Below are positions 15,896-48,242 of a DNA stretch of 64,000 bases, piece by piece. The translations under genes and the position numbers were made by a program. This stretch comes from Elusimicrobiota bacterium. Lineage in GTDB: Bacteria > Elusimicrobiota > JBDRON01. Every line of letters starts with the position of its first letter. Positions within the stretch are counted from its first letter, which is position 1. The notes under the pieces are model-generated. The model was not told the DNA's origin. It did no database searches and was given only the letters and a program-made list of their open reading frames with translations. The stretch lies in contig JBDRON010000056.1 of the NCBI GenBank assembly GCA_043810025.1, positions 19,377 through 83,376 of the forward strand, in the 5' to 3' direction.

Positions 15896-18229
15896 ATGAA
15901 AAAGCTACTGGTTTATTTTAACATAATTTGTTTTTTGTTTGGTCTTTTTCCGACCGCTGTCTTCGCCGAGACCGTCGATGTCTACACTGGAAAAAAAATC
16001 CGGGCAATAGAGATTAAGGGAAATAGAAATGTTAAGGAGAGCGCTATCCGGGAAAAAATGAAGTTGAGTAAAGGTGATTTCTATAATCAAGGAAGTGTCG
16101 ATGAAGATATTCAAAAAATTAATGAATTGGGTTTGTTCGACGAGGTTAAGGTTGATCTGGAAGAAGTGAAGAAAGGGGTGAAACTGATTTATTATTTGGT
16201 GGAAAAACCGATTATTAAAAAAATTGAGTTTAAGGGTAATAAAAAATTTCCTAACCGCCGGTTAAAAGAAAAAATTGCCAGTAAAGAAGAGGAGTCTTAT
16301 AACAAAACCAGAGTTGAAGATGATCTTGGCAAGCTGATCATTTTTTACAAAGATGAAGGTTATAGCGAGGTTAAAGTCGAAGCTTTTCCGGCTGTCGATG
16401 AAAAAACAAATCAAGCGGTGATAACCTTTTTTATTCGGGAAGGCAAACAGGTTTTAGTTGATAAAGTCCTTTTGAGCGGAACAAAAGATTTTAGCGCCAA
16501 GAAAGTGCTTAAAGGGATGAAACTGCGCAGGAAAAAGGTTTTTAAAGAAGATACTCTGCGGGCGGATATCAAGGAGATAGAAAGTTTTTATAAAAATCGC
16601 GGGTATTTGCAAGTGACGGTTGTCGAACCACAGATTACTTACAATAAGGAGCGGACAAAAGTCAGTATCGAAATAAAAGTTGTTGAGGGCAGGAAATTCA
16701 GGTTTGGAGCTATTACTTTTGAAGGGAGCAGTTTGTACCCGGAAAAAAAATTATTGACTAACCTTACCTTTAAACCCGGGCAGATTTTTTCCCAGCAGGA
16801 ACTGGACAAAAGTGTGGAAAATGTTCATCAGCTTTATTATAGCAAAGGATATCTGCGCTCGTTGGTGGAAGCTAAACAAGATGTGCAAGAGATTGCCGGT
16901 ATTTTAAATGTGGCCGTCAATATTACTGAGGGCGGGATTGTTTATATCGATCGGATTTATATTGAAGGCAATACCTTCACCAAAGATTATGTGCTCCGCC
17001 GGGAACTGCTGGTTAAGGAAGGGGATCCGTTTGATTTAACTAAAATTAAACGCAGTCAGGAAAAACTTTACAATTTGGGATTTTTAAAAGAGGTGTCGAT
17101 AGACATTCAAGAAACACCGGTTGAGGATAAGGCCGACTTGGCCATTGATATTAAAGAAGACAAGCCGGGAATTTTAACCATGGGCGCGGGCTATTCTTCC
17201 GTGGACCGGTTTTCCGGAACCTTGCAGGTTTCCCATGTCAATATGTTTGGCCTGGGCCAGCGTCTTAACCTGCTCTGGGAGTTCGGCCAGCGCAAACAGA
17301 ATTATGAAATCGGTTTTACTGAGCCCTGGATCTTCAGTAACCCGATTTATGCCGAAAGTCCTTCGGCTTTGTTTCGTTGGTTAAATCGCCATCAAACCAC
17401 CGCCGGTTTCGGTGTTTTTAACACGATTCGCAAAAGGCAGTATGGCACGGAGTCCGATGCTTATAAAGAACAGCGCCGGGGTGGAGATTTGCGCTTGGGC
17501 CGCAGTTTTACTGATTTCGTTTCGGGAAACCTTACATACTCTTATGAAGAAATAAAGCTATTTGATTCTATCGTGACCGATGTTAAACCTTCTCTGGCGG
17601 TTACCTCCAGCATTTCGTCCGGGTTATCCCGGGATAGCCGCGATAACATTTTTGATGCGGCCCGCGGGTCCCGAAATAGTGTTTCAGTGGAACTGGCCGG
17701 CGGTCCGGTTGGCGGGAATGTGCATTTCTACCGGCCGAGCGTTACCTCTTCCTGGTTTTTTCCGACCTTTTGGAAGTTTGTGTTTTCCACCAATTTGCGC
17801 TTGGGTCTGATTCGCTCTTTTCCACCATCATCAGAAATACCGGTCTATGAGCGGTACTATGTGGGTGGGGCGGATACGGTGCGCGGCTATGACTACCGCG
17901 GGCAAATCGGCCCTCAGGAAGGCGGCAATATCATGAGCGTGGTGAATGCTGAATACAAGTTTCCTTTTGTCGAAGAAGGCGGTCGGACAATATTGCAGGG
18001 AGCCTTCTTCTTTGATTTGGGCGGCGCCTGGCGGAACTTTCGGGATATAAGGTTAGCTCTGGGTAACGAAGAACTGAATTGGAAAGCCGGGGTGGGTTTC
18101 GGGATCCGGATTTTTGTGATGGCGGTATTCCCGATCAGGCTGGACTGGGGCTATGGTTTAAATCATCGCCGGGACATTCAAAAAGCCAGCCGTCACCAGT
18201 TCTACTTTACCATCGGCCAGGTGTTTTAA
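15896..18229 (+). CDS. bamA: outer membrane protein assembly factor BamA
   Basis: 777 aa; N-terminal signal peptide, repeated POTRA-like segments (IEFKGNKKF..., ITFEGSSLY..., IYIEGNTFT...); C-terminal beta-barrel ending ...FYFTIGQVF; followed by skp-lpxD. Confidence 0.9.
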   Translation: MKKLLVYFNIICFLFGLFPTAVFAETVDVYTGKKIRAIEIKGNRNVKESAIREKMKLSKGDFYNQGSVDEDIQKINELGLFDEVKVDLEEVKKGVKLIYYLVEKPIIKKIEFKGNKKFPNRRLKEKIASKEEESYNKTRVEDDLGKLIIFYKDEGYSEVKVEAFPAVDEKTNQAVITFFIREGKQVLVDKVLLSGTKDFSAKKVLKGMKLRRKKVFKEDTLRADIKEIESFYKNRGYLQVTVVEPQITYNKERTKVSIEIKVVEGRKFRFGAITFEGSSLYPEKKLLTNLTFKPGQIFSQQELDKSVENVHQLYYSKGYLRSLVEAKQDVQEIAGILNVAVNITEGGIVYIDRIYIEGNTFTKDYVLRRELLVKEGDPFDLTKIKRSQEKLYNLGFLKEVSIDIQETPVEDKADLAIDIKEDKPGILTMGAGYSSVDRFSGTLQVSHVNMFGLGQRLNLLWEFGQRKQNYEIGFTEPWIFSNPIYAESPSALFRWLNRHQTTAGFGVFNTIRKRQYGTESDAYKEQRRGGDLRLGRSFTDFVSGNLTYSYEEIKLFDSIVTDVKPSLAVTSSISSGLSRDSRDNIFDAARGSRNSVSVELAGGPVGGNVHFYRPSVTSSWFFPTFWKFVFSTNLRLGLIRSFPPSSEIPVYERYYVGGADTVRGYDYRGQIGPQEGGNIMSVVNAEYKFPFVEEGGRTILQGAFFFDLGGAWRNFRDIRLALGNEELNWKAGVGFGIRIFVMAVFPIRLDWGYGLNHRRDIQKASRHQFYFTIGQVF

Positions 18230-18358: not shown

Positions 18359-19132
18359 ATGAATAGAAAATATTTTACTTTGCTCTTGATTGTTAGTATC
18401 GGGGCGCTGCCGTGTTGGGGATTTCGGCTTACCGATCAGCCGCAGACCGCAGCGACTCCATCCAGTGTTCAGCCGGCCAAACTTCTTCAAGCGGCTCCGG
18501 CCGAAAAAAAAGCGCCGAAGATTGCTTTTGTGGATATGGAGAAAATTTTTAACGAATTTCCGGAAACCAAAACAGCTAAAGAGCAATTGGATGCGATGGT
18601 TAATAAAGGCAAGGAAGAAATTGTTTTAAAAGAACAAAAAGTAAAAAATTTAAAAGCTGAAATTGTTTCTCTTTCTGTCCAACCTTCGTCGCCGGCTGTC
18701 AAGCAGCAGTCCTATACGGTCCAACCATCATCGCCTTCGATCAATCAGCAGTCCTATACTGTTCCGCCATCCTCATCGTCATGGAGTCAACCATCGGATC
18801 TGGAACAACCGGTTTCTTCCCGCTCTTCTGCGGAGATTCTGTCGGATAAACAGGCGGAATTAAAACAAGCTCAAGACGCTTTGGACAAATTTATTGCCGA
18901 CACCGAACAACGGCTTACGGAATGGGAAAGTAAAGCCATGCGCGGGATCTTGGGCAAGTTTTACCAATCCCTCCGCAAAATTGCCGAGGAGGAAAATTTT
19001 AGCATTATTGTTGATAAAAACAGTGTTCTTTATGGTGAGCAGGGATTGGATATCACCGATCGTCTCCAAAAAGACTTGGAAAAAGCAGCCGAAGAATTAA
19101 TTGAAATTGAAGAAAATCCGGAGGATGAGTAA
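18359..19132 (+). CDS. skp: periplasmic chaperone Skp (OmpH family) with internal P/S/Q-rich tandem repeat insert
   Basis: Signal peptide; coiled-coil Skp-like ends; position between bamA and lpxD; tandem 14-aa repeats QPSSPAVKQQSYTV/QPSSPSINQQSYTV. Confidence 0.72.
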   Translation: MNRKYFTLLLIVSIGALPCWGFRLTDQPQTAATPSSVQPAKLLQAAPAEKKAPKIAFVDMEKIFNEFPETKTAKEQLDAMVNKGKEEIVLKEQKVKNLKAEIVSLSVQPSSPAVKQQSYTVQPSSPSINQQSYTVPPSSSSWSQPSDLEQPVSSRSSAEILSDKQAELKQAQDALDKFIADTEQRLTEWESKAMRGILGKFYQSLRKIAEEENFSIIVDKNSVLYGEQGLDITDRLQKDLEKAAEELIEIEENPEDE

Positions 19133-19140: not shown

Positions 19141-20157
19141 ATGCAAAAAACCGTTGAAGAAATTAGTCGGCTGCTGGATGGTAAGCTGGAGGGTAACGGA
19201 CAAATAATTATTACCGGCGCGGCCGGTATTCGAGAGGCGGCGCCTGGAGAGATAACTTTTTTGGCGAATCCCAAATATGTTGAGGATCTAACAACTACAC
19301 AGGCTTCGGCGGTAATTGTGCCTAAGGATATTTCGCTAGAGGGTAAAACCTTGATCCGGGTAGATAATCCGCAATTTGCTTTCGGTAAAATTTTGGAAAT
19401 TATCGATAAGGAAAAAAAGACTATCGCCCGGGGTATCCACCCGACGGCGGTTTTGGGCAAAAACATCAAGATCGCTCCGGGGGTAACCTTAGGAGCTTAC
19501 ACGGTAGTTGAGGATGGTGCGGAGATCGGGGAAGAAACGGTCATCTATCCGCACTGCTACATCGGACAGAAAACAAAAGTCGGTTCTTTTTGCCGGATCT
19601 ATCCCCAGGTAACCATTCGGGAAGAGGTGAAGGTTGGCGATAGAGTTATTATCCATTCCGGCACGGTCATCGGGTCCGATGGTTATGGTTTTGCCGCTTT
19701 TGAAGGGGTTCATCACAAAATACCGCAAATCGGCACGGTAATCATTGAGGATGATGTAGAAATCGGGGCGAATGTCACTATTGACCGGGCGACAACCAGC
19801 GCTACCCGGATTGGAACTGGGACAAAAATTGACAATCTGGTTCAGATTGCCCATAATGTAGTTGTCGGAAAAAATTGTTTAATTATCGCCCAGGTAGGTA
19901 TCGCCGGTTCGACAAAAATTGGCGATGGTGTGACGCTGGCCGGGCAGGCCGGTCTGGTCGGGCATATTAGTATCGGTGATAAAGCGGTGGTGGCGGCTCA
20001 GGCCGGGGTGATTGCCGATGTGCCGGCCAACACGGTAGTTTCCGGTTATCCGGCTCGCCCGCATCGGGAGGCTTTAAAATTGCAGGCCTACATGCAGAAA
20101 CTGCCGGAATTGATTGCGCTAGTCAAAGAATTAAAAGAAAAAATAGAAAGAAAATAA
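19141..20157 (+). CDS. lpxD: UDP-3-O-(3-hydroxyacyl)glucosamine N-acyltransferase
   Basis: 338 aa; left-handed beta-helix hexapeptide repeats; LpxD N-terminal domain; conserved bamA-skp-lpxD synteny. Confidence 0.9.
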   Translation: MQKTVEEISRLLDGKLEGNGQIIITGAAGIREAAPGEITFLANPKYVEDLTTTQASAVIVPKDISLEGKTLIRVDNPQFAFGKILEIIDKEKKTIARGIHPTAVLGKNIKIAPGVTLGAYTVVEDGAEIGEETVIYPHCYIGQKTKVGSFCRIYPQVTIREEVKVGDRVIIHSGTVIGSDGYGFAAFEGVHHKIPQIGTVIIEDDVEIGANVTIDRATTSATRIGTGTKIDNLVQIAHNVVVGKNCLIIAQVGIAGSTKIGDGVTLAGQAGLVGHISIGDKAVVAAQAGVIADVPANTVVSGYPARPHREALKLQAYMQKLPELIALVKELKEKIERK

Positions 20158-20171: not shown

Positions 20172-21485
20172 TTGGATAAACAGCGAACAATCGAGAAAGA
20201 AATAAGTTATTCGGGAATCGGTTTGCATACCGGGAATACTACTACGGTGAGTTTTAAACCGGCGCCGGCTAATTCCGGGATCAAGTTTGTACGTAGTGAT
20301 CTGACCGGCCGGCCGGAGATAGCCGCTAATTTTTCTAATGTTTTAGGGGTTGTGCGCGGTACCAGTATCGGTGTTGGCGAAGTGCAAATACATACAGTTG
20401 AACATTTGATGGCGGCCGTCTGTGGTTTGGGGATTGATAATTTAGCGATTGAAGTTAACGCCAACGAACCGCCCGTTGCCGATGGTTCCAGCCGGCCCTT
20501 CATTGATATTCTGGAAAAAGCCGGTATTATTGAGCAGGATGCCCCGCGCAATTATTTTGCGATAGAGTCACCGCTGAAGTATTCGGTTGACAATGTGGAA
20601 ATAATTGCTTTGCCCGATGATAAATTTCGTATTTCTTACATTATAGAATACAATCATCCGCTGGTGAGCGTAGAGTTTGCTTCTTTCGAGATTACCCCGG
20701 AAATATTTAAAAAGGAAATTAGTTCCGCCCGAACTTATTGTTTTGATTATGAAATCGAGATGTTAAAAAAGAAAGGGCTGGGCAAAGGCGGCAGTTTGGA
20801 TAATGCGATTGTCATCGGAGAAAAAAATATTCATAATAAAGAAGCTTTACGGTATCCTAATGAGTTTGTCCGGCATAAAATTCTGGATTTGATTGGCGAC
20901 CTTTATCTGCTGGGATGCCCTCTGAAGGGTCACATTATTGCGGTTCGGTCCGGTCACGGACACAATATCAATTTTGCTAAGCAGCTTAGCCGGCAGATCA
21001 ACAAAAAACCTGAGCTGGCGGCTAAAAAGGACATTGCGCCGGCGCCGGTCGGCCGGATGTTGGATATTATTGAGATTAAAAAAGTTATTCCACACCGTTA
21101 TCCCTTCCTGCTGATTGATAAAGTTATTGTTACCGAAGAACAAAAAAAAGCTGTTGGCTACAAGTGTGTCACCGCAAACGAAGAATTCTTTCAGGGACAT
21201 TTTCCGGAACGGCCGATTATGCCCGGGGTTTTGATCGTTGAGGCGATGGCCCAGACCGCCTGCGTGCTTTTTCTATCCCGCCCGGATTTGAAAAATAAGC
21301 TGGCTTATTTTATGGGATTGAATGAAGTAAAGTTCCGGCGGCCGGTCGTTCCCGGCGATGTTTTGCGGCTGGAAGTAGAAGTGCTTCGGGCGCGGGAACG
21401 CGGGGGTAAGGTGCAGGGAAAGGCTTATGTCGATGAACATCTGGCGGCCGAATCGGAATTTATGTTCACGTTAGTGGATAAGTAA
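20172..21485 (+). CDS. lpxC-fabZ: bifunctional UDP-3-O-acyl-N-acetylglucosamine deacetylase / 3-hydroxyacyl-ACP dehydratase (LpxC::FabZ fusion)
   Basis: 437 aa; N-terminal LpxC (GIGLHTG..., HTVEHLMAAV, zinc motif region), C-terminal FabZ hot-dog (IPHRYPFLLIDKV...FFQGHFPERPIMPGVLIVEAMAQ); TTG start. Confidence 0.88.
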   Translation: MDKQRTIEKEISYSGIGLHTGNTTTVSFKPAPANSGIKFVRSDLTGRPEIAANFSNVLGVVRGTSIGVGEVQIHTVEHLMAAVCGLGIDNLAIEVNANEPPVADGSSRPFIDILEKAGIIEQDAPRNYFAIESPLKYSVDNVEIIALPDDKFRISYIIEYNHPLVSVEFASFEITPEIFKKEISSARTYCFDYEIEMLKKKGLGKGGSLDNAIVIGEKNIHNKEALRYPNEFVRHKILDLIGDLYLLGCPLKGHIIAVRSGHGHNINFAKQLSRQINKKPELAAKKDIAPAPVGRMLDIIEIKKVIPHRYPFLLIDKVIVTEEQKKAVGYKCVTANEEFFQGHFPERPIMPGVLIVEAMAQTACVLFLSRPDLKNKLAYFMGLNEVKFRRPVVPGDVLRLEVEVLRARERGGKVQGKAYVDEHLAAESEFMFTLVDK

Positions 21486-21593
21486 ACGGCAGCCTAAAAG
21501 CCTAAAAGGCTAAGAGTTATTAGCCCAAGAGTAAAGAATAAAAGCCTTTTTGGAGAAAATATGCTGACAAAAGAAAAAAGCAAGGAGACCTTG

Positions 21594-22368
21594 ATGAACA
21601 TTCATAAAACTGCTTTAGTCCATCCCGATGCGGTCATCGGTGAAGATGTGGAAATCGGTCCCTTTTCAATTATTGGGGGCGAGGTAAAAATTGGCAAGAA
21701 TACCCGGATTGGCGCCCATGTGGTAATTGAGGGAATAAGCGAGATCGGTGAGAATTGCCGGATATTTACCGGAGCAATCATTGGGAATTTCCCGCAGGAT
21801 TTAAAATATAAAGGGGGAAAAAACGAAAGTTGTGATCGGCAGCAACAATGTTATCCGCGAATATGTAACGATTAATCGGGGAACTGTGGCTGTGGGGGAA
21901 ACAAGAATCGGGGATAATTGTTTATTGATGGCTTATGTGCATATCGCTCACGATTGTTCCGTTGGTAACGGGGTAATTTTGGCGAATGTGGCTACTCTGG
22001 CCGGCCATGTGATAATTGAGGATAAGGCGGTCATCGGCGGGGTTACTCCAATCCATCAGTTTGTCCGGATTGGGACGATGGCCATCGTTGGCGGGGCCAG
22101 CCGGGTGGCTAAAGATGTGCCTCCTTATTGTATGGCGGCCGGTATGCCGATCCGGACATTCGGTTTAAATGTTGTCGGGTTACAGCGCAACGGAGTCTCT
22201 TCGGAGACTAGGGAACAGTTGAAGAAAGCTTACAAAACAGTTTTTCGTTCCAGCCTCAATGTCAGCGATGCGATCGCCGCTTTGGAGAGGGAAAGCAATC
22301 ATTGTGAAGAGGTTGCCTATTTTATTAATTTCATTAAACAATCCGAACGAGGGATATGCAAAGAGTAG
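21594..22368 (+). pseudogene. lpxA: acyl-ACP--UDP-GlcNAc O-acyltransferase LpxA, interrupted by a +1 frameshift in a G5 run (sequencing error or real pseudogene)
   Basis: Two overlapping ORFs (21561..21875, 21832..22368) together give a full LpxA. Deleting one G from GGGGG at 21813-21817 restores ...[29 protein letters not shown]... in one frame. Confidence 0.75.
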
Positions 22369-23159
22369 GTTTAATTGCCGGCAACGGATCATTCCCGTTT
22401 GTGTTTGCCAAACAAGCCAGAGAGTTGGGCAATCAGGTTGTGGTGATCGGGCTGAAAGAAGAGACGGATCCTTCCTTGGAAAAGTTTGTGGACAAACTCT
22501 ACTGGATATCCTTAGGCGAATTTGGAAAATTAATCAGGATTTTAAAAGAAGAAAATATTACCCGGCTGGTGATGGCCGGGCAGGTTAAACATGTCCAGAT
22601 TTTTAAGAATATCAAACTGGATTTGCGCGCCGGCGCTCTGCTTTTTAAACTGATCAACAAAAAAACCGATACCATTCTTAAAGCTGTCGCCGATGAATTG
22701 AAAAAAGAAGGTATCGAACTGCTTTCCTCGGCCACCTTCCTCCCTCATTTGCTGGCCACCAAAGGCCTGATCTCTTCCCGCCAACCAACCAAAGAAGAAT
22801 CCGAAGACATAAAATTTGGCCAAAGTATCGCCAAACAGATTGCCGGCCTCGATATCGGCCAGACCGTAGTGGTTAAAGACAAAGCGGTAGTGGCGGTAGA
22901 ATCGGTAGAAGGCACCGACCAATGCATTCGCCGCGGCGCATCTTTAGCCGGTGAAGGTGTAGTCGTGGTTAAAGTAGCCAAACCCAACCAGGATTTCCGC
23001 TTCGATTTACCGATTATCGGCCTGAACACCATTACCACCTTAAGCGAATCCGGCAGTTCGGTCATCGCCATCGAAGCCGGAAAAACGCTGATGCTGGATA
23101 AAGAAGAAATAATCCGCCAGGCCAACGAAAAAAATATCAGCATATTCGGGATAGAGTAA
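22356..23159 (+). CDS. lpxI: UDP-2,3-diacylglucosamine pyrophosphatase LpxI (DUF1009 family)
   Basis: 267 aa beginning MQRVGLIAGNGSFPF, the typical LpxI N-terminus; located right after lpxA. Confidence 0.8.
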   Translation: MQRVGLIAGNGSFPFVFAKQARELGNQVVVIGLKEETDPSLEKFVDKLYWISLGEFGKLIRILKEENITRLVMAGQVKHVQIFKNIKLDLRAGALLFKLINKKTDTILKAVADELKKEGIELLSSATFLPHLLATKGLISSRQPTKEESEDIKFGQSIAKQIAGLDIGQTVVVKDKAVVAVESVEGTDQCIRRGASLAGEGVVVVKVAKPNQDFRFDLPIIGLNTITTLSESGSSVIAIEAGKTLMLDKEEIIRQANEKNISIFGIE

Positions 23160-23180
23160 AAAAATAATTCGGATAGTAAT

Positions 23181-23265
23181 GTTAGTTGTAGGGAACGGTC
23201 GTGACCGTTCCGCTTTTGTCATGTAACAGAAATATAAGTTGTAGGGAAAGCATATCTGCGTTCCC
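23181..23265. repeat. Family D element, copy D2 (two GTTGTAGGGA units)
   Basis: GTTAGTTGTAGGGAACGGTCGTGACCGTTCCGC...GTTGTAGGGAAAGCATATCTGCGTTCCC; downstream of lpxI. Confidence 0.6.
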
Positions 23266-23287
23266 AGGTGAACCATAAAAATAGTCC

Positions 23288-23316
23288 TTGACAATACAAG
23301 TTATAACTTGTATACT
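23288..23316 (+). promoter_or_regulatory. sigma70-like promoter TTGACA-17-TATACT with a palindromic operator (CAAGTTATAACTTG) in the spacer, upstream of higB-like/higA-like
   Basis: Consensus -35 at 23288-93, 17-nt spacer that is itself a perfect 14-bp palindrome, -10 TATACT at 23311-16. Confidence 0.5.
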
Positions 23317-23340
23317 CTTATTAGAAATAAAGAGTAAAAG

Positions 23341-23688
23341 ATGCTGAAAAATATCTATTATTTTGTAGATGAACGGGGTGATAACCCGGTTAGAGAATTT
23401 ATAGATTCTTTGCCGATTAAAGAACGGGCAAAGATATTTGCTTACATTGAAGAATTAAGAAATCAGGGTCACAATTTGCGTAGGCCGATAGCGGATTATT
23501 TAGGTAACGATATTTATGAACTAAGACCTAAAAGCAATAGAATCTTTTATTTCTTCTTTTTAAAAGATAACGCGGTTTTGGTTCATGCCATAAAAAAGAA
23601 GACGGACAAAATTCCCAATGCCGATTTAAACTTAAGTATAAAAAGAAAAGGGTTGGTTGAGGAGTATGAACGAGTAGAAAAAATATAA
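23341..23688 (+). CDS. type II toxin, HigB-like / phage-related Gp49 (RelE/ParE superfamily)
   Basis: 115 aa, MLKNIYYFVDERGDNPVREFIDSLPIKERAKI...; followed 8 nt later by an XRE HTH gene (toxin-first HigBA arrangement). Confidence 0.68.
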   Translation: MLKNIYYFVDERGDNPVREFIDSLPIKERAKIFAYIEELRNQGHNLRRPIADYLGNDIYELRPKSNRIFYFFFLKDNAVLVHAIKKKTDKIPNADLNLSIKRKGLVEEYERVEKI

Positions 23689-23704
23689 TAGTGAGGTGAG
23701 CGGG

Positions 23705-24031
23705 ATGAAAAAAATTAAATTAGAAAAAATCGACGACCATTTAAACGCGGAATTAAAGAATGAAGAATTCAGAAGGAATTTTGAATTAGAAAGAGCTAAA
23801 GTATCGTTGGCTCAAAAAATAGCGGAGCTGAGACAGGATAAAAAACTGAAACAAATTGATCTCGCCAAGAAACTGCATGTTTCGCAGCAATTCATTTCCC
23901 TGATTGAAACTGCGCAAGAAAAGAATTTGACTCTGGAAACTTTAGTAAAAATTGCCAAGTCCTTGGGAAGAAGTGTCAAAATTTCTTTCCCCAAAGCCTC
24001 TGCCCAAGGTGCTCATCTCAAGATAGCATAA
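23705..24031 (+). CDS. HigA-like antitoxin, XRE-family HTH DNA-binding protein
   Basis: HTH region LRQDKKLKQIDLAKKLHVSQQFISLIE; GAGGTG RBS before ATG 23705. Confidence 0.68.
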   Translation: MKKIKLEKIDDHLNAELKNEEFRRNFELERAKVSLAQKIAELRQDKKLKQIDLAKKLHVSQQFISLIETAQEKNLTLETLVKIAKSLGRSVKISFPKASAQGAHLKIA

Positions 24032-24119
24032 TTTGTTTGAATACAAAGTAACAGATAAAAAAATACAGCCGACTAATTTTAGTTTAATTCCCTAGTTTAA
24101 GAATATAAGTAAGTTTAAT

Positions 24120-24593
24120 ATGAGTGAAGAAGAAAAATACGAGTACGATAGTAATATTTTGTCAATAAAGTATACAAAAATTACTGATACGATACCTGTT
24201 TCTGGTGCGAATACATCTACCAGTATATTTTGGGATCAAACAGAAATGCCTGATGCCGGAGTTCTTAAATTTTTAGAACCTTGTGGTCGGAATTGGAGAT
24301 TCGGAAAACTGGAAAATGAAATGAAGTATGTAGCGAGGGTGCACCACAAATTAAAATCAAATTCTAAAGGTAATTTCTATACTTTAATATGGAGTTGGAA
24401 AGATATTCATCAAGTAAAGGAGTGGCTTGAATTAGACGGTGTTGCAATAGACTTAAAAACAAAATTTGTTATTAGGCCAGGATGTTTAATCGCAATTGGG
24501 AATTTTAAGAAAAACAATAATCATCAAATTTATGTAAAAGAAAAAGAGGAATTTGTTCTTGAAATTACAGAAAGTACTACTAATATAGAATGA
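24120..24593 (+). CDS. hypothetical protein (ORF A of AT-rich island), translationally coupled to the next gene
   Basis: 157-aa ORF in a markedly AT-rich segment; 4-bp overlap (ATGA) with the downstream ORF; no recognisable motif. Confidence 0.5.
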   Translation: MSEEEKYEYDSNILSIKYTKITDTIPVSGANTSTSIFWDQTEMPDAGVLKFLEPCGRNWRFGKLENEMKYVARVHHKLKSNSKGNFYTLIWSWKDIHQVKEWLELDGVAIDLKTKFVIRPGCLIAIGNFKKNNNHQIYVKEKEEFVLEITESTTNIE

Positions 24594-25666
24594 AAACTTC
24601 TCCGATAAAACAATTACCAAACAATGACTATTTAATAAATCCTGGTGCTTCATTTGAAATGCATCTTTATAATACCGACATCAATACCGTAACCGAACTA
24701 GTTAATATTATGAAAAAAGGTGAGGAAGAAGGATCAGGAACTGGCGTTGTTAACTGTAAATTGTTGGAATTACTAGTAAAAAATAATGTTAGATGCCGTG
24801 AAATTGATTCTTATGTAAATGAATTTCGGCCACAATATATTCAAAATCTAAAAACATATTCTGGATTAAATGTTGACTGGCAGAGTATTAATGAAATTGA
24901 TATAAGTAGTATTCCAGAAGAAATCAGAAAAAAAGCAGTTGATGAGTTGCGCATAAAACCAGACACTAATATAGAGGTTTTGTTTAAACTTTATCCTTGT
25001 GATGATTCTGTGCCGATAGAAGTATTTAGGAAGTATCCCTTTAAAGTTATAGTAAAATATCTTAATGTTTGGGATCGGGGCAAAGAATTGAAAGTTATTC
25101 CTCTGGAACACCGAGATAGAAAAATTTACGAGAAAATGGTTGAATTGAATCTGTCTATGCAAGGGGAAGCAATTCCGCTTAAAGATATATTAGTGACTTT
25201 GAAATTATCTGAATTAAAGGAAATCGGTTTAAAGGTAAATACAGAGCCATCAAATAAGAAAGAAAAAGTTATTGAAAATTTACTGAGCAAAGAAGGTGTT
25301 GAAAAACAAATTCAAGGTAGTATTAATCTTAAAGACTATTTTAAACTTATTTCTATCGAACGAGAGTTTGGCTCCGATATATTCAGTAAATTAAATTCAT
25401 CCATTAAATATAATGAACTTAATGCAGACTTAATTGGGAGAACTTTTTTATTCTCTTATTACAATGATTCTAGGGATAATTCCTGGTCGAATCCAATATC
25501 TTCTGAACTAATCACAGGATATGAAATTTCAATGGTTTCCGATGCAAGATGTTGCCCTTACTGTAAAGATATGAAAGGAAAAAAGTTTGACAAAGTTAAT
25601 TGTCCTAAAATACCATTGCATTTGGCTTGTCGATGTGCGAAAGTCCCGCTAACAAAATATGGCTAA
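24590..25666 (+). CDS. hypothetical protein (ORF B) with SAP-like helix-extended-helix motif and C-terminal Mu-F/SPP1-gp7-like zinc-ribbon motif (CxYC...PLHxxCRC)
   Basis: 358 aa; LKDILVTLKLSELKEIGLKVNT...KKEKVIENLLSK resembles a SAP DNA-binding motif; C-terminus CCPYCKDMKGKKFDKVNCPKIPLHLACRCAKVPL resembles the conserved end of phage head-morphogenesis (Mu F) domains. Confidence 0.5.
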   Translation: MKTSPIKQLPNNDYLINPGASFEMHLYNTDINTVTELVNIMKKGEEEGSGTGVVNCKLLELLVKNNVRCREIDSYVNEFRPQYIQNLKTYSGLNVDWQSINEIDISSIPEEIRKKAVDELRIKPDTNIEVLFKLYPCDDSVPIEVFRKYPFKVIVKYLNVWDRGKELKVIPLEHRDRKIYEKMVELNLSMQGEAIPLKDILVTLKLSELKEIGLKVNTEPSNKKEKVIENLLSKEGVEKQIQGSINLKDYFKLISIEREFGSDIFSKLNSSIKYNELNADLIGRTFLFSYYNDSRDNSWSNPISSELITGYEISMVSDARCCPYCKDMKGKKFDKVNCPKIPLHLACRCAKVPLTKYG

Positions 25667-25702
25667 AGTATTTGAATAAAACACTGTATTAGGGGATTAA
25701 AT

Positions 25703-26155
25703 ATGTCGGGATCATTTTTATACATTGGAATTCATTTTATTTTTAGTACAAAAAATCGTGTGAACATAATTACTAGCGAAATAAAAGATAGGTTGTATTC
25801 CTATATTGGCGGAATAATAAAATCAATTAAAGGTATACCAATTGCTATAAATGGAATGCCTGATCATATCCATGTTTTTTGTATTGTATCACGGGAAATG
25901 ACCATTGCTGATTTTATGCGTATTGTTAAATCAAATTCATCAAAATGGTTGAATGAAACTTTTCCTGTTAAGCCAAAATTCCAATGGCAAGACGGATACG
26001 GTTCGTTTTCAGTCACTAAATCATCAGAAAATAAAATCATTGAATATGTAAAAAATCAAGAAGAACATCATAAACAAAAATCATTTCAGGATGAATTTAT
26101 TGAATATTTAAGATTGATGAAAATTGACTATGATGAAAGATATATATGGCAATAA
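25703..26155 (+). mobile_element. tnpA: IS200/IS605-family Y1 HUH transposase (TnpA) / REP-associated tyrosine transposase (RAYT)-like, solitary
   Basis: 150 aa; HUH motif MPDHIHVFCIV; C-terminal catalytic Tyr in EYVKNQEEHH (Y-x-x-NQ motif of IS200 TnpA/RAYT); no tnpB partner. Confidence 0.75.
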
Positions 26156-26400
26156 TACTCCGCCGCCCCGTTGGGGCTTATATTTTCATGGGTGATTATA
26201 GCGGGGATTACATCCCCGCCTATAATCCGCAATCCCTTCGGGATAATAAATTGAAAAAGATTGTAGTATGCTTTTATTTGTCCTGAAAGGACAACGGAAT
26301 ATAGGCGGGGGGCTTGCCCCCCGAAAATGAAATATTCCATGAACGATAAGCCCTGAAAGGGCGGAGGAAAAGCGCCCAAATTATTTATAAATTTTCAGTG
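26156..26400 (+). other. structured GC-rich hairpin cluster downstream of tnpA (possible IS end / REP-like hairpins / small RNA)
   Basis: Hairpins TATAGCGGGGATTACATCCCCGCCTATA (26195-26225), GTCCTGAAAGGAC, GGCGGGGGGCTTGCCCCCCG (about 26300-26322), GCCCTGAAAGGGC; the outer complement CTCCGCCGCCCC...GGGCGGAG frames the region. Confidence 0.45.
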
Positions 26401-26592
26401 TAATAAAAAGAGGTAAGCTATGGATTTCAAAATTTTATCTACTCACTCGTGGGGCGGAGATTTGACAGAAAAAAATTATTGGCCTAGAATCGGGGGAAAG
26501 TTTCCCTATTACGAAATTATCTGGTCGAAGGTTATAGCGCTCTTAACAAAGAGATCAGACAATTTACTTTTGGTTTAAAAAGGGGGGGTGTT

Positions 26593-27498
26593 ATGAAAAA
26601 TTTTTTTGAGAAAAATAAAATATTCTTGGGTATAATTATAGCCGGTTTGATGATTGCCGCAGCTATTTATTTTGGTTTAAATAAGCCGGCTGATAAAGAA
26701 AAATATTTATCATTATCGTCCTCGCCGTCTCCTGCCCAAAGTTTGGCGCCGGCTGAGGCTCTTGTCACTAAAGTTATCGATGGTGATACGATAATTGTTG
26801 AAGGCGGTTATAATGTCCGGCTTTTGGGTATTGATGCTGATGAGGCGGGTTATCCCTGTTACGAAGCAGCCAAAAAACGCTTAGAAGAATTGATTTTAAA
26901 TAAAACGGTGAGATTGGAAAAAGACCAAACCGATGTTGACCAATATAAAAGATATTTGAGGTATATTTTTCTTGACGACAAAAATATATGTTTAGAGTTG
27001 GTAAAAGAAGGCTTGGCAATTGCCAGATTTTATGAGCCGGATAGAAAATACAAAAACGAGATTGTTTCCGGCGAAAAAGAAGCGATTGAGAAAAAAGTTG
27101 GTTGCAAATGGTCCGCTTCCACCAATGTTTCGGCGGATAAATTATCTTACGAAAAAAACGAATTCTCCTATGAGAAATTAACCACGGGGAAGACCGGTTT
27201 AAAAGTAGTTGGCGCTTACCAATCAGGGAATTATTACGGAAGAGAAGTCATTGTGGAAGGAAAAGTAGTTGGCGCTTATCGCTCAAAAACAAATATAGTT
27301 TTCTTAAATTTTGATAAAACCTATCCCAATCAATATTTTGTCGGAGTTATTTTTAGTTCAGACCAGTATAAGTTTGTTGAGGCGCCGGAAAAATATTATG
27401 CGGGAAAAACCGTTAGAATCAAAGGAAAAATTAAGGAGTATCGCGGCAAACCGGAAATTATTATAAAAGACCCTTCCCAGATTGAGATAGGAAAATAA
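26593..27498 (+). CDS. membrane-anchored thermonuclease (SNase-like) with C-terminal OB-fold domain
   Basis: N-terminal TM; SNase core VIDGDTIIVEGGYNVRLLGIDADE...RYLRYIFLDDKN...; C-terminal OB-fold-like repeat (KVVGAY...KGKIKEYRGKPEIIIKD). Confidence 0.72.
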   Translation: MKNFFEKNKIFLGIIIAGLMIAAAIYFGLNKPADKEKYLSLSSSPSPAQSLAPAEALVTKVIDGDTIIVEGGYNVRLLGIDADEAGYPCYEAAKKRLEELILNKTVRLEKDQTDVDQYKRYLRYIFLDDKNICLELVKEGLAIARFYEPDRKYKNEIVSGEKEAIEKKVGCKWSASTNVSADKLSYEKNEFSYEKLTTGKTGLKVVGAYQSGNYYGREVIVEGKVVGAYRSKTNIVFLNFDKTYPNQYFVGVIFSSDQYKFVEAPEKYYAGKTVRIKGKIKEYRGKPEIIIKDPSQIEIGK

Positions 27499-27735
27499 AC
27501 TCATATATGCAAAGTCAAAATAAAAAAGGGAAAAATCTTTTTACAGTATCAAAAATTAGAGGGTATTGATTGGTTATGAAACTCACTAAAAAAGATTCAG
27601 AGACAATTTGTGATGTTTTTTTGTTTTCTGGTAAATATGATCTTATGGATGGAAATTGATAATGAGTAAAGAGACAATAGAAAAGCTCACAAATACAATT
27701 GCTCAAAATACCGAACCTAAAATTCAGCCGCGTAT

Positions 27736-27764
27736 TGTATATAACTGCGCATAATTAAAGGGAC
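27736..27764. repeat. left arm of a 29-bp perfect inverted repeat (TATATAACTGCGCATAATTAAAGGGACAT)
   Basis: Exact reverse complement found at 27958-27986; the pair flanks a 193-bp segment containing Family A copy A3. Confidence 0.8.
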
Positions 27765-27817
27765 ATCAGCAAAAGTGTCATAGCAACGAAAGCTGGTATC
27801 CAGAAAGTGTGATATAC

Positions 27818-27957
27818 AGAAATTTGAATGTTTGTTTTGCGTATATTCCCCCTTAAAAAAGGGGGACACAGGGGGATTTTGAAAATTAGAAATATTGTCT
27901 AAATCTCCCCTACCCCTCTTTTTAAAAGAGGGGAAAAAATACCACAGAACGAAACTC
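27818..27957 (+). repeat. Family A triple-hairpin element, copy A3 (inside the 29-bp IR pair)
   Basis: GAAATTTGAATGTTTGTTTTGCGTATATT-CCCCCTTAAAAAAGGGGG-ACACAGGGGGATTTTGAAAATTAGAAATATTGTCTAAATCTCCCCTA-CCCCTCTTTTTAAAAGAGGGG-AAAAAATACCACAG. Confidence 0.7.
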
Positions 27958-27986
27958 ATGTCCCTTTAATTATGCGCAGTTATATA
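27958..27986. repeat. right arm of the 29-bp perfect inverted repeat; contains the start codon of the downstream wHTH gene
   Basis: ATGTCCCTTTAATTATGCGCAGTTATATA; ATG 27972 (MRSYIVEK...) lies inside it. Confidence 0.8.
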
Positions 27987-28196
27987 GTCGAAAAAATAGA
28001 GGATAAAAACATAATTGTAGTTGATGTAAATGAATCTATTTATTTAAGAGAACATAAAGAAATAACTAGAAATGAATGTATGGAATTATTGAATTTAACG
28101 AGAGATATTGCAATTAGAGAACTTTTATCGTTGAAGAGAAAGGGAATTATTAAACAAATTGGTAAAGGGAAGAACATTTATTATGTACTTGTCTAA
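27972..28196 (+). CDS. small winged-helix DNA-binding protein (possibly a gene fragment)
   Basis: 74 aa; ...ITRNECMELLNLTRDIAIRELLSLKRKGIIKQIGKGKNIYYVL resembles C-terminal wHTH domains of Fic/AAA-type regulators; the start is embedded in the inverted repeat. Confidence 0.4.
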   Translation: MRSYIVEKIEDKNIIVVDVNESIYLREHKEITRNECMELLNLTRDIAIRELLSLKRKGIIKQIGKGKNIYYVLV

Positions 28197-28256
28197 CGAA
28201 AATGCGACGAATCCGATTCGTCTCAGGCGGATTGATTTTTGGTTTTGCGGAGTGAT

Positions 28257-29237
28257 ATGGCTAAAATAAAAGTTGCGGTTGTTGGGGTGGGGCATTTGGG
28301 GCAGCATCATGCGCGGGTTTATTCCCAGTTGCCGGAAGCGGAATTGGCGGCGGTGGTGGATAACGATTTTTCTGCGGCGCAGAAGTTTGGGAAAAAATTT
28401 GGCTGTGCGGCTTTGGCGGATTACCGGCAAATTTTGGGCAAAGTTGAGGCGGTTTCGCTGGTCGTGCCTACCCCGCTGCATTTTTCCATCGGCAAAGATT
28501 TGCTTTCTGCCGGTCTGCATGTTTTAATCGAAAAACCACTGGCTTCCTCTTTGGAAGAAGCGGAAGAATTAATTGCCTTGGCTCAGCAAAAAAACTCCAT
28601 ACTGCAAGTCGGGCATATCGAACGGTTTAACAGCGGCCTGGTAGAAACGCAAAAGTATATCAGCCGGCCGCGGTTTATTGAAGCTAACCGGCTGGGGCCT
28701 TACGATCCCCGCACCGGTCATATCGGGGTGATCCTGGATTTGATGATTCACGATCTGGACATAGTTTTACAGTTGGTTAATTCCAAGATCGAAACAATCG
28801 AGGCGGATGCGGCGGCGGTTTTTTCCGGCCACGAGGATATCGCCAAAGTGCGTTTAAGGTTTGCCAACGGTTGTATCGCCGATTTATCGGCAAGCCGGAT
28901 TTCTCTGGAAAAATTTCGTAAAATAAGAATTTTTCAGCCGGAGAGTTATATTTCGCTGGATTATATCCGTCAGGAGCTGAAAATTTATCGCAAGAAAGAG
29001 TCGGTGGAGCAGGTTAAATCCCTGATGGACATTGAGGTTATCCGTCCAAAGTTAAAAAGCCAGGAACCTTTGCAGGAAGAGCTGAAACATTTTCTGGAAT
29101 GCGTCCGAACCGGTAAAACCCCGCTGGTCACCGGCGAACACGGCCGCGGCGCCCTGGAGCTGGCTTTGGAAATTTTAAAGAAAACAAAAGTACAAGTAGT
29201 AAATAGTCCACAGTCCACGGTCCACAGTCCACACTAA
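28257..29237 (+). CDS. Gfo/Idh/MocA-family NAD(P)-dependent oxidoreductase (possible UDP-GlcNAc 3-dehydrogenase GnnA-like, lipid A associated)
   Basis: Rossmann N-terminus MAKIKVAVVGVGHLGQHHARVY; immediately upstream of lpxB-msbA; the last 11 codons (NSPQSTVHSPH) are encoded by a GTCCACA heptamer-repeat arm. Confidence 0.75.
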   Translation: MAKIKVAVVGVGHLGQHHARVYSQLPEAELAAVVDNDFSAAQKFGKKFGCAALADYRQILGKVEAVSLVVPTPLHFSIGKDLLSAGLHVLIEKPLASSLEEAEELIALAQQKNSILQVGHIERFNSGLVETQKYISRPRFIEANRLGPYDPRTGHIGVILDLMIHDLDIVLQLVNSKIETIEADAAAVFSGHEDIAKVRLRFANGCIADLSASRISLEKFRKIRIFQPESYISLDYIRQELKIYRKKESVEQVKSLMDIEVIRPKLKSQEPLQEELKHFLECVRTGKTPLVTGEHGRGALELALEILKKTKVQVVNSPQSTVHSPH

Positions 29238-29306: not shown

Positions 29307-30434
29307 ATGGATAAAAAAATATTTATTTGTGCTGGCGATGTTTCCGGGGACGAGCATGCTGGCCGGCTGGTCGAGGAGTTAAAAAAAATTAATCCCTCTT
29401 TAACCATTTTTTCTTGCGGTGGAGAAAAACTTAAAAGTAAGACTAATTTTATTTGCGATCTGGTTGGGCTGTCGGCGTTTGGTTTCCTGGAACCGCTGCG
29501 GGAAATTTTTACTTTTCGGAACATTTTAAAAAAAATCATTCAACCTTTGTTGGTTGGCAATAAAATTGATTTGGTTGTTCTGGTTGACTATTATGGATTT
29601 AATGTTCATGTGGCCCGTTTAGCCAAAGAGTTAGCTATACCGGTAGTTTATTATATCAGCCCGCAGGTTTGGGCGAGCCGGCCGGGAAGGATAAAAGTTT
29701 TAGCGAAATTGGTTAAAAAAATGCTGGTCATCTTCCCCTTTGAGGAAGAAGTTTATCGAAAGTCCGGGCTGGAGGCGGTTTGGGTGGGACATCCCTTAAT
29801 GGATAAAATACCCGAGCCTAATTTCTCCAGTCAAAATACGGCTAAAGAATGTTTGATCGGCCTTTTTCCAGGCAGTCGGCGAGGAGAGGTTGTCAGTCAT
29901 TTACCGATTATGGAAAAGACTGTTCGGTTAATTATTAAACAGTTTCCGCAAGCGTATTTCGTGATCTTTGCCGCTTCGGCGATGGCTGAGGATTTAATCA
30001 ATAATTATTGGGCCGGGGATGATTTGCCGGTATCGATCGTGCGCGATCATAATTACAGTTTTCGCCGAATGCTTAAATTTGCGATTGTTGTTTCCGGCAC
30101 GGTTACACTGGAAAATGCCTGTTTGGGAATACCGATGCTGGTAATTTACCGGACCAATTGGCCGACTTATTTTTTAGCTAAACAGTTGATTAAAATCCGT
30201 TACATTAGTATAGTTAATCTATTGGCCGGGCGCGAAATTGTCCCGGAGTTCATTCAGCGGAAGGCCGCAGCGGAAAATCTGGCCGCGGCGACGGTTAAGC
30301 TGCTGAAAAACCCTGATGAATTGGAACAATTTCGACAACAATTGCTTGAGATAAGAAAAAAACTCGGCGCGCCGGGAGCGAACCGAAAAGCAGCAGAAAT
30401 TATTCTCGGGTGCTTGGGGGAAGGTGGGGTTTAA
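29307..30434 (+). CDS. lpxB: lipid-A-disaccharide synthase
   Basis: 375 aa starting MDKKIFICAGDVSGDEHAGRLV (GT19 LpxB signature); followed by msbA. Confidence 0.88.
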   Translation: MDKKIFICAGDVSGDEHAGRLVEELKKINPSLTIFSCGGEKLKSKTNFICDLVGLSAFGFLEPLREIFTFRNILKKIIQPLLVGNKIDLVVLVDYYGFNVHVARLAKELAIPVVYYISPQVWASRPGRIKVLAKLVKKMLVIFPFEEEVYRKSGLEAVWVGHPLMDKIPEPNFSSQNTAKECLIGLFPGSRRGEVVSHLPIMEKTVRLIIKQFPQAYFVIFAASAMAEDLINNYWAGDDLPVSIVRDHNYSFRRMLKFAIVVSGTVTLENACLGIPMLVIYRTNWPTYFLAKQLIKIRYISIVNLLAGREIVPEFIQRKAAAENLAAATVKLLKNPDELEQFRQQLLEIRKKLGAPGANRKAAEIILGCLGEGGV

Positions 30435-30437: not shown

Positions 30438-32162
30438 ATGTATTCACGGTTAGCAAAGTATTTTCGGCCTTATTTAGCGCGGTTTTTGCAGGCGGTGGTC
30501 TGTATGCTTTTAGTTGCCGGCTTAACTGCTTTGTCAATGTGGATTTTGCGCGATGTCATCGATAAAATATTTATTGCTAAAAACCAAAAAATGCTGTTCT
30601 GGGTTGCCGGAGCCGTGCCGGCGATTTTTTTATTGAAAGCGATTTTCTCTTATATTCAAACTTATTTGATTGCTTATATCGGCCAGCAGATCATTAAGAC
30701 TCTGCGCAACGAATTATTTAATCATCTCCAGAAACTTTCCCTGGATTTTTACCATCGTAACCCCAGCGGCAAGATTATGGCCCGCCTGACCAACGATGTG
30801 CAAACATTACAGAATGCGATCACCCATGTGCCGTTGTATTTTATTCGTGACGGCTTTACGATAATTTTCCTGGCCGGGTTTCTTTTTTATCTGAATTGGC
30901 AATTTGCTTTGATTACGCCAATCGCGATTCTGGTTGCCGGCTGGCCGATTGTCCTCTTTGGCAAGAAACTGCGCAGTGTTGGCCGGCATGGCCAGCAAAA
31001 AATGAGCGATGTTTACACCTCGCTTCAGGAGAATGTCAGCGGGGTAATGGTGATTAAGGCTTTTAATATGGAGGATTACGAGCGGGAGAAGTTCACCCGG
31101 GAAAACCAGAACTATTTCAATATTGTGATGCGTTCCTTACGGGTGGAGGCGCTTTCCACTCCGGTTATGGAACTTATTGGGGCGGTCTCGATAACGATAA
31201 TTATTTTCTGGGGCGGCTGGGATGTAATTAAAGGGGTATGGACCGCGGGATCTTTTTTTGCTTTTTTGGGAGCTTGCTGGTCCACATATAATCCAATCAA
31301 GAATTTTGCCCAAATGAACAACAATGTCCAACAGGCTTTGTCGGCGGTGGAACGAATTTTTTCCTTGCTCGATGAGAAACCAAAAATCCAGGAAGTTGAC
31401 CATCCGATACAGCTGTGCCCGATCGAGCAGGAGATTCGGTTTCAAGATATCTGGTTTTCTTACTACCCTGGTGAATATATTCTAAAAGACATAAATTTTA
31501 TTATCAATAAAGGCGAGGTTGCGGCGCTAGTCGGCCCTTCCGGCGTAGGGAAAACCACCTTGATTAATTTATTGGCGCGGTTTTACGATCCGGTGCAAGG
31601 AGCAATTTTCATTGACGGTATCGATATCCGGCAAGCCGGCAAGAAATCGTTGTATGAGCAGATTGGGATAGTCACCCAGGAGACGATTCTTTTTAACGAT
31701 ACAATTTACAACAACATCGCCTACGGGCGCTGGGGAGCGTCGGATAAAGAAGTGGAGACCGCCGCTCAAATGGCTAACGCCCATGAATTTATTGGCCGGC
31801 TTCCCCAGGGTTATGGCACTTTTGTCGGTGAGCGGGGGGTGCTGTTGTCCGGCGGTCAAAAACAACGGATCGCCATCGCCCGGGCGATCCTAAAAAAACC
31901 TTCTATTTTAATTCTGGATGAAGCCACCTCCAATCTGGATACCGAATCGGAAAAACTAGTCCAGGAGGCTTTAGAACGGTTAATGGTCCGGCAAACCACT
32001 CTGGTAATTGCCCACCGTCTTTCCACGATCGCCCGCGCCGATAAAATAGTGGTTTTTAACCATGGCCGGATCGCCCAGATCGGCCGCCATCAGGAACTTT
32101 TAAAACAAGAAGGAATATACAAAAAACTTTTTGAACTCCAGTTTTCCAAAACCACAATTTGA
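30438..32162 (+). CDS. msbA: lipid A export ABC transporter permease/ATP-binding protein MsbA
   Basis: 574 aa; six TM + NBD with Walker A GPSGVGKTT, signature LSGGQKQRIAIARA, Walker B ILILDEATS. Confidence 0.85.
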   Translation: MYSRLAKYFRPYLARFLQAVVCMLLVAGLTALSMWILRDVIDKIFIAKNQKMLFWVAGAVPAIFLLKAIFSYIQTYLIAYIGQQIIKTLRNELFNHLQKLSLDFYHRNPSGKIMARLTNDVQTLQNAITHVPLYFIRDGFTIIFLAGFLFYLNWQFALITPIAILVAGWPIVLFGKKLRSVGRHGQQKMSDVYTSLQENVSGVMVIKAFNMEDYEREKFTRENQNYFNIVMRSLRVEALSTPVMELIGAVSITIIIFWGGWDVIKGVWTAGSFFAFLGACWSTYNPIKNFAQMNNNVQQALSAVERIFSLLDEKPKIQEVDHPIQLCPIEQEIRFQDIWFSYYPGEYILKDINFIINKGEVAALVGPSGVGKTTLINLLARFYDPVQGAIFIDGIDIRQAGKKSLYEQIGIVTQETILFNDTIYNNIAYGRWGASDKEVETAAQMANAHEFIGRLPQGYGTFVGERGVLLSGGQKQRIAIARAILKKPSILILDEATSNLDTESEKLVQEALERLMVRQTTLVIAHRLSTIARADKIVVFNHGRIAQIGRHQELLKQEGIYKKLFELQFSKTTI

Positions 32163-47393: not shown

Positions 47394-48242
47394 ATGTCGG
47401 TTTATTTAATCTATAAATTTATTTCTGTTCTGGTCCGCCTTTTGCCTCGGAGAATTAGTTATTTATTGGCTGATCTGGCGTCTACGATCAGTTGGTTGAT
47501 CAGCAGAAAAATAAGGTTGAACATTCAAAGCAACTTAAGTCGGATTTTAGGTGTTAGCGAAAAAAAATGCCTGCTAAAAAGCCGAAAGGCAGTGGTGTAT
47601 TTTACCCAGTATCTGGTGGATTTTTTTTTATTCCCGCACCTGGACGAAAAGAAATTTTTAGAAATAGTTACACCGCCCAGCCGGGATAAAGTAGAAGATT
47701 TATTCAAACAAAAAAAGGGGATCATCGCTCTTTCCGGCCATTTAGGACATTGGGAATTAGGGGCGTTGGTCTTAGGTTTGTGGGGATTCCCGGTTAATGT
47801 GATTTATTTGCCGCATCAAGATCAAAGGATTGACCGGCTTTTTCTCCAAACCCGCTTGCGGCAGATTCATTGGGTGCCTGTGGGCAGCGCTTTGCGCCGG
47901 GGGATGAAGGTTTTGAAGCATGGGGAAATCTTGGCTACCGGCGGAGATTTGGTTTATGGCGAGGGCGGAGTGGAAATAAATTTCTTAGGAAAACCGGCGC
48001 GGTTTCCGACCGGTCCGGCCCTCCTTTCCATCAGAACAGGAGCGCCGATTTTAGTGGCGTTTTTTGTCCGGGATAGTCAAGGCAACTACCGGGGAATTAT
48101 GGAAGAGCCGATTTATCCCCTGGCCAATAACGATCAGAAAAATGAAGCCTATAGAATTACCAAAGAGTTTGTTAAAATCTTAGAGAGGTATGTGTACAAA
48201 TATCCGGAACAATGGCATATTTTTCAAAAATTTTGGCTTTAG
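47394..48242 (+). CDS. lipid A biosynthesis late acyltransferase (LpxL/HtrB-family lysophospholipid acyltransferase)
   Basis: LPLAT fold with HX4E-like motif SGHLGHWELG (compare HFGNWE of LpxL); 282 aa. Confidence 0.65.
   Translation: MSVYLIYKFISVLVRLLPRRISYLLADLASTISWLISRKIRLNIQSNLSRILGVSEKKCLLKSRKAVVYFTQYLVDFFLFPHLDEKKFLEIVTPPSRDKVEDLFKQKKGIIALSGHLGHWELGALVLGLWGFPVNVIYLPHQDQRIDRLFLQTRLRQIHWVPVGSALRRGMKVLKHGEILATGGDLVYGEGGVEINFLGKPARFPTGPALLSIRTGAPILVAFFVRDSQGNYRGIMEEPIYPLANNDQKNEAYRITKEFVKILERYVYKYPEQWHIFQKFWL

Follow-up and report, generated by a model that had tools for sequence, protein, structure and literature searches.

A one-base excess in a short G run breaks the lpxA reading frame of an Elusimicrobiota metagenome-assembled genome and is probably a data artefact

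Results

The lpxA locus as deposited

The window, by which is meant the whole 64-kb stretch of DNA that was analysed, belongs to the record of a metagenome-assembled genome (MAG) of an Elusimicrobiota bacterium with the locus tag prefix ABII74. It contains a cluster of genes for lipid A synthesis in which lpxA, the gene whose product carries out the first acyl transfer of the pathway, is represented by two overlapping open reading frames (ORFs) rather than by one. The original prediction had described lpxA as lying in two such frames, at 21561..21875 and 21832..22368, and both ORFs exist as described, with the second in the +1 frame; each of them has been deposited in GenBank as a protein in its own right. 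The features of the locus are listed here, where L082 and L001 denote the two close relatives to which the window is compared below.

21561..21875, forward strand: 5' ORF, deposited as MFH1259238.1, 'hypothetical protein ABII74_05425', 104 aa (exact protein match)
21582..21587, forward strand: Shine-Dalgarno-like AAGGAG, separated by 6 nt from ATG 21594, the probable lpxA start
21594..21815, forward strand: frame-0 5' segment of lpxA, with the native codons M1 to G74 (NF003657 positions 4-80)
21813..21817, forward strand: G5 homopolymer which carries one extra G, the frameshift site (GGGG in L082 and GGTG in L001 at this place)
21816..21875, forward strand: out-of-frame tail of the 5' ORF, 19 aberrant codons (from the translation and the stop map)
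21817..22368, forward strand: 3' segment of lpxA in frame +1, codons E75 to E257 and the stop codon TAG (NF003657 positions 84-260)
21818..21823, forward strand: A6 run adjoining the G run, of the same length as in the relatives
21832..22368, forward strand: 3' ORF, deposited as MFH1259239.1, 'acyl-ACP--UDP-N-acetylglucosamine O-acyltransferase', 178 aa, with a GTG start (exact protein match)

The window sequence at 21810-21825 is AAA GGGGG AAAAAA CG. The ORF that begins at ATG 21561 stays in frame 0 up to the TAA at 21873-21875, which is the 0-frame stop, and the +1 frame, which is open from 21805 onwards, offers GTG 21832 as its first start codon and is closed by the TAG at 22366-22368. A single uninterrupted lpxA frame is not present, the switch from one frame to the other falling at 21813-21817, and in the deposited sequence the lpxA reading frame is broken after codon 74 by one extra G.

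The coordinate 21561, from which the original prediction had counted the gene, holds as the boundary of the ORF and not as the start of lpxA. The true start is almost certainly ATG 21594, which gives a protein beginning MNIHK, because AAGGAG lies 6 nt upstream of this codon and the homologous start is called in both close relatives, whose lpxA genes encode 257 aa when they are read from the homologous ATG. Shine-Dalgarno-like motifs of a similar kind also precede bamA, the gene of a btuB-like receptor, and vhuG in the window.

Family membership of the repaired protein

When the two ORFs are compared separately with the LpxA equivalog model NF003657, which has 264 positions, the 5' ORF matches positions 4-80 (E=2e-29) and the 3' ORF matches positions 84-260 (E=3e-76). 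Because the second match takes up the model almost where the first leaves it, the two ORFs are consecutive parts of one family member and not a chance juxtaposition. Deletion of one G produces a 257-aa protein which covers positions 4-260 of the model with a score of 376 bits, the curated cut-off being 226 bits, and it is only after this removal that the score and the end-to-end coverage expected of an LpxA equivalog (NF003657 / TIGR01852) are obtained together. A tblastn search of the window with the repaired protein places residues 1-78 on the 5' segment and residues 73-257 on the 3' segment, the latter with 100% identity.

The repaired protein also aligns with the solved structures 4r36 (Bacteroides LpxA) and 4eqy without a gap across the junction, and its PQDLKYKGE segment and its HIAHDC region, which contains the catalytic histidine, match the same motifs in both structures. 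Both of the features by which LpxA is recognized, the HxxH of the catalytic region in the beta-helix and the QDLK segment that binds UDP-GlcNAc, are conserved in the repaired product.

Comparison with relatives

Two intact 257-aa LpxA proteins, those of L082 and L001, share a 90%-identity protein cluster with the 3' fragment. L082 (GCA_017973895.1, JAEMOI010032261.1) has approximately 94% nucleotide identity to the window over lpxC-fabZ, lpxA and lpxI, and its site reads AAA GGG GAA AAA ACG, in which G4 is followed by the same A6 and which is exactly the repaired window sequence. The expectation that removing one G from the run at 21813-21817 would restore a conserved junction is borne out by this comparison, in which the 51 nt around the repaired site are identical to those of L082. 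Since L082 has G4 and then the same A6, it is a G rather than an A that is in excess. L001 (ENA ERZ27228609) has 89% nucleotide identity, and its site reads AAA GGT GAA AAA ACC.

A homopolymer indel is recognized by a change in run length of plus or minus one whose repair restores the orthologous sequence, and this is the pattern found here, where G5 stands against G4 in L082 between identical flanks. Across lpxA and lpxI the frameshift is the only frame-changing gap between the window and L082. The lesion is therefore a private G4-to-G5 insertion with G4 as the ancestral state.

The lesion is restricted to the one sequence. The best 120 protein matches are all single-ORF proteins with at least 93% of the query covered, and a pattern scan of JGI metagenomes for lpxA sites with the DLKYKGEK nucleotide motif returned sites that are in frame in 82 cases out of 82, the pattern being a relaxed one and the organisms being unrelated and mostly marine. 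At 4 of these 82 sites GGGG is followed by A6 or A7. With strict flanks the metagenome scan gave no match. Eleven metagenomic sites resembled matches with a 3-nt gap and were rejected as frameshifts, since they read in frame as GGN GAA AAA AAC, with an Asn codon. A scan of genome contigs for LpxA by means of generic peptide motifs gave a best protein, among the matches listed, that is 55% identical, with no second lpxA copy of the genome among them, and a literature search under the accessions of the relatives found no papers on their environment.

Selection on the two parts of the gene

In order to compare the parts of lpxA that lie before and after the shift, dN/dS was computed on the repaired gene by the Nei-Gojobori method. 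The values against L001 are 0.024 before the shift and 0.036 after it, and those against L082 are 0.20 in both parts, as expected for a very close pair. When L001 is used as the outgroup, 5-6 private amino-acid changes are assigned to the window lineage and 6 to the lineage of L082, in which the gene is intact. Comparison with L082 reveals no further indels in lpxA or lpxI besides the extra G. Both halves of lpxA are under strong purifying selection (dN/dS approximately 0.03). The substitution pattern gives no sign of a period in which the 3' part of lpxA evolved without constraint, and a decaying pseudogene was rejected as an explanation on the grounds that dN/dS is 0.02-0.04 in both halves, that the private changes do not exceed those of the sister lineage, and that the pathway is intact.

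The lipid A pathway and its neighbourhood

The original prediction had stated that lpxD, lpxC-fabZ, lpxI, lpxB, msbA and an lpxL-like gene accompany lpxA, and all of these are present at full length against their profiles, in an envelope cluster of the customary kind. The genes concerned, together with two that precede them, are the following.

15896-18229: bamA, full length against its profile
18359-19132: skp-like gene, an assumed assignment for a gene without a family match
19141..20157, forward strand: lpxD, intact (NF002060 positions 3-343 of 345, 398 bits)
20172..21485, forward strand: lpxC-fabZ fusion, intact (NF009667 positions 2-462 of 464, 532 bits)
22356..23159, forward strand: lpxI, intact, 267 aa as in L082 (NF047836 positions 1-273 of 275, 157 bits, which is below the equivalog cut-off of 400 bits; named LpxI in GenBank)
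29307..30434, forward strand: lpxB, intact (TIGR00215 positions 9-378 of 382)
30438..32162, forward strand: msbA-like ABC exporter, intact (TIGR02203 positions 2-571 of 572)
47394..48242, forward strand: LpxL-like lipid A late acyltransferase, intact (NF006270 positions 8-287 of 298, 91 bits, which is below the cut-off of 248 bits; 'lysophospholipid acyltransferase family protein' in GenBank)

The start of lpxI overlaps the stop of lpxA by 13 nt. No second lpxA was found within the 64-kb window, where the only paralogue is lpxD (28% identity), and no second lpxA of the same genome was found among 10 close NCBI homologues, the accessions of which belong to other genomes.

The lipid A cluster is split, between lpxI and a block formed by an oxidoreductase gene, lpxB and msbA, by approximately 5 kb of accessory genes (23160-28238), which comprise a small two-gene pair (23341-24031), two unknown genes, an IS200/IS605-type TnpA-like gene (25703-26155) and a thermonuclease-like gene (26593-27498); L082 lacks 23163-23687. 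The oxidoreductase (28239-29237), a member of the Gfo/Idh/MocA type encoded directly upstream of lpxB, has UDP-GlcNAc 3-dehydrogenase as its best match, at 259 bits against a cut-off of 450 bits. Its position could hint at a lipid A of the GlcN3N type, for which no partner aminotransferase was seen in the window.

Assembly quality and other features of the window

Approximately 60 ORFs of the window were checked against NCBIfam or Pfam, in a survey which took in every adjacent pair of ORFs in different frames, and lpxA is the only frame break among them. The further candidates for frameshifts were all rejected, since cobU/cobT, the LpxL-like gene with a small exporter gene, msbA with the ORF downstream of it, hdrA/mvhD and a set of small minus-strand ORFs proved to be separate complete genes or to have no family match; in the case of hdrA/mvhD, which might have been a frameshifted fusion, the genes are separate and overlap by 4 nt.

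The 33 genes that were verified as intact (35,073 bases) contain 362 homopolymer runs of at least 5 nt, none of which breaks a frame and 55 of which are at least 7 nt long, including A9, T9 and G8. Because all 362 runs are in frame, a sequencing technology with systematic homopolymer errors is unlikely, and given a contig that is clean at homopolymers, an error at a G4-5 run would be a sporadic one. No other error of the same kind was found within the window. The genes of the window lie nearly all on the plus strand, and G runs of at least 5 nt (65) are far more numerous than C runs of at least 5 nt (13). Two stretches of approximately 0.5 kb each, 27498-27972 and 38385-38908, lack both a convincing ORF and any match in Pfam or Rfam, and contain only short overlapping minus-strand ORFs.

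Two genes of the window are shorter than their counterparts in other genomes. A btuF-like gene (36024-36683, 219 aa) lacks an internal in-frame block of approximately 171 nt (junction at approximately 36590), and a btuC-like gene (36680-37378, 232 aa) lacks one of approximately 294 nt (junction at approximately 36939). Both blocks occur in all homologues, among them a 75%-identical relative (L165), and the BtuC block is present in all 119 listed BtuC homologues (314-362 aa); it is possible that the gaps are real private deletions, or alternatively that they are assembly collapses. The two genes belong to a cobalamin salvage and uptake operon (window 35238-43347) which is headed by an AdoCbl riboswitch (35238-35379, 53 bits) and which comprises cobA/btuR, the btuF-like and btuC-like genes, a btuD-like gene, cobU, cobT, cobS and the gene of a TonB-dependent receptor of the B12 type.

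Elsewhere in the window there is an ORF of at least 1392 aa (2-4180) which continues beyond the left end, includes a thioester-like CVEQ motif and resembles alpha-2-macroglobulin by eye, with no NCBIfam match at E<=1e-20. There are also an 11-subunit complex I operon, nuoABCDHIJKLMN, without nuoEFG (4285-14517), and a cluster of the hdrA-mvhD-vhuG-vhuA type for a heterodisulfide reductase and a [NiFe] hydrogenase (57070-62047).

Discussion

The break in lpxA is probably explained by a contig that carries one G too many in the GGGG run of an otherwise functional gene. The cause would be a sporadic sequencing, assembly or consensus indel at the homopolymer, the origin of which would lie in the data and not in the cell, and in the organism lpxA would read AAA GGG GAA AAA ACG and would encode a normal LpxA of 257 aa. 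A homopolymer indel of this kind was also the reading preferred in the original prediction, and the singleton status of the lesion and the lack of other decay make it the likely one. It is favoured because the lesion consists of one homopolymer base whose removal restores a full-length LpxA well above the cut-off, because it is a singleton which is absent from all relatives and which occurs in a gene without other decay, and because the neighbouring pathway genes and bamA are full length. Nearly all diderm bacteria cannot do without lpxA, so that a fixed lpxA null has a far lower prior probability than a single indel in 64 kb, a frequency which is within the range reported for metagenomic contigs. 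A survey of frame transitions has likewise concluded that a singleton validated by homology is more probably a sequencing error than a genuine mutation (Antonov et al. 2013, PMC3711429). Against an artefact it must be set that the contig is otherwise clean at homopolymers, including far longer runs, and that the private deletions in the btuF-like and btuC-like genes, if they are real, would indicate a lineage that tolerates some gene damage.

It is unlikely, if by no means fanciful, that the extra G is instead genuine and results from a very recent slipped-strand insertion which has produced an lpxA null allele in the sampled population, where the null would be tolerated by virtue of an lpxA copy elsewhere, would mark an incipient loss of lipid A, or would be a deleterious variant picked by the assembler. 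The change from G4 to G5 is a classic product of replication slippage, and a genuine mutation would be in keeping both with an assembly that has no other homopolymer errors and with the occurrence of private deletions in the btuF-like and btuC-like genes of the same window; but lpxA has neither a second lesion nor any sign of relaxed selection, the remaining pathway and bamA are intact, a second lpxA is absent from the 64-kb window and none of the close NCBI homologues (0/10) comes from the same genome, and the gene is, as a matter of general knowledge, essential in most diderms. The precedents for such an allele come from Neisseria meningitidis, in which homopolymer frameshifts inactivate lpxL1 in natural isolates, and in which lpxA itself can be inactivated, constructed lpxA nulls being viable (PMC2667671). 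A genuine G5 would be a naturally occurring lpxA null of a rare kind, from a diderm phylum that is uncultured, and possibly a step towards an outer membrane free of LPS, and the present evidence does not point there. A much smaller probability attaches to the idea that G5 is real and that LpxA is nevertheless made by recoding, through a +1 slip of tRNA-Gly (GGG-G) or tRNA-Lys (AAA-A), possibly helped by the Shine-Dalgarno-like AGGGGG in the fashion of prfB, or through slippage of RNA polymerase on the G5 and A6 runs. Both GGG-G and AAA-A re-pair perfectly in the +1 frame, as is expected of slippery P-site codons, and the ancestral KGEKTK would be restored exactly by a slip on GGG-G, with a slip on AAA-A giving a single Glu-to-Gly change; moreover, AGGGGG is, from general knowledge, the hexamer that stimulates the +1 shift in prfB, and the organism uses canonical ribosome-binding sites of the AGGAG type. 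These attributes are offset by the context of the site, in that the 0-frame codons that come after the slip sites are common ones (in the 33 window genes GGA accounts for 22% of Gly codons and AAC for 37% of Asn codons), there is no stop codon directly after the site, the Shine-Dalgarno-like element overlaps the slip site or is 1 nt away from it rather than 3 nt upstream as in prfB, and the downstream hairpin is predicted to be weak (z = -1.9) and is kept in neither L082 nor L001. Efficient transcriptional slippage needs an A or T run of approximately 8-9 nt or more, and the G5 and A6 runs at the site are below that length. Conservation of the shift is also lacking, since the frame is intact in the two close relatives and in every other homologue examined, and it is a conserved position and direction that serve as the criterion for recoding (Antonov et al. 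2013, PMC3711429). Recoding, if true, would be a newly arisen, lineage-private event in an essential envelope gene.

It is scarcely credible that lpxA is truly split and functions as two polypeptides, an N-terminal one of 93 aa and a C-terminal one of 178 aa which is started at GTG 21832 with GGGGG as its ribosome-binding site. The GTG does lie downstream of the G run, and the C-terminal piece contains the catalytic histidine region and by itself scores 256 bits against the cut-off of 226 bits; but 14 nt is a long distance between a ribosome-binding site and its start codon, the last 19 residues of the N-terminal piece are unrelated ones, no relative is split likewise among the best 120 matches and L082, and the chain would be interrupted midway through the left-handed beta-helix, directly behind the conserved QDLK segment, which is known from the literature on Escherichia coli LpxA to contribute to UDP-GlcNAc binding. 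There is just as little to recommend the notion that the G run is a phase-variation switch for lipid A synthesis, even though its length differs between the window (G5) and the closest relative (G4) and Neisseria has phase-variable lipid A and LPS genes. Phase-variable loci have a long tract of approximately 7-8 or more G or C, the length of which varies among strains, and the tract here is far below that at 4-5 nt, shows only one length difference, and is interrupted in L001 (GGTG); furthermore, most diderms cannot survive once the first step of lipid A synthesis is turned off.

An indel in the data being the probable origin of the extra G, the finding is an ordinary one, for which the evidence favours error, or at the outside a very recent private mutation, over special biology. 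Its main value lies in curation. The two GenBank proteins should be read as one frameshifted lpxA, and the GenBank record should carry a note of the frameshift, as automated pathway calls could otherwise score lpxA as truncated or odd.

Comparison with known systems

The repaired 257-aa product is a typical member of the LpxA family (NF003657, TIGR01852; PDB 1lxa, 4r36), which it resembles in its left-handed beta-helix with a C-terminal helical domain, in its HxxH catalytic region, and in the gene order lpxD / lpxC-fabZ / lpxA / lpxI; it differs from the family in that the deposited frame is broken after codon 74. With +1 frameshifting of the prfB type the site has in common the direction of the shift, a slippery codon that can re-pair, and an AGGGGG hexamer, but it lacks conservation among orthologues, an A-site codon that is rare or a stop, and the right spacing of the Shine-Dalgarno element. 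The lpxL1 gene of Neisseria meningitidis (Fransen et al. 2009, PMC2667671) is similar in that it suffers one-base indels in A or G runs by slipped-strand mispairing, but lpxL1 encodes a late and dispensable acyltransferase whose mutations recur in many isolates, whereas lpxA of the window encodes the first and normally essential step and has been hit once, in a run of 4-5 nt. The singletons of the GeneTack survey (Antonov et al. 2013, PMC3711429) are like the lesion described here in that they have homology on both sides of the shift, are unshared with orthologues and lie at a short homopolymer, the difference being that those singletons were found in finished isolate genomes and the present one is found in a metagenome-assembled genome.
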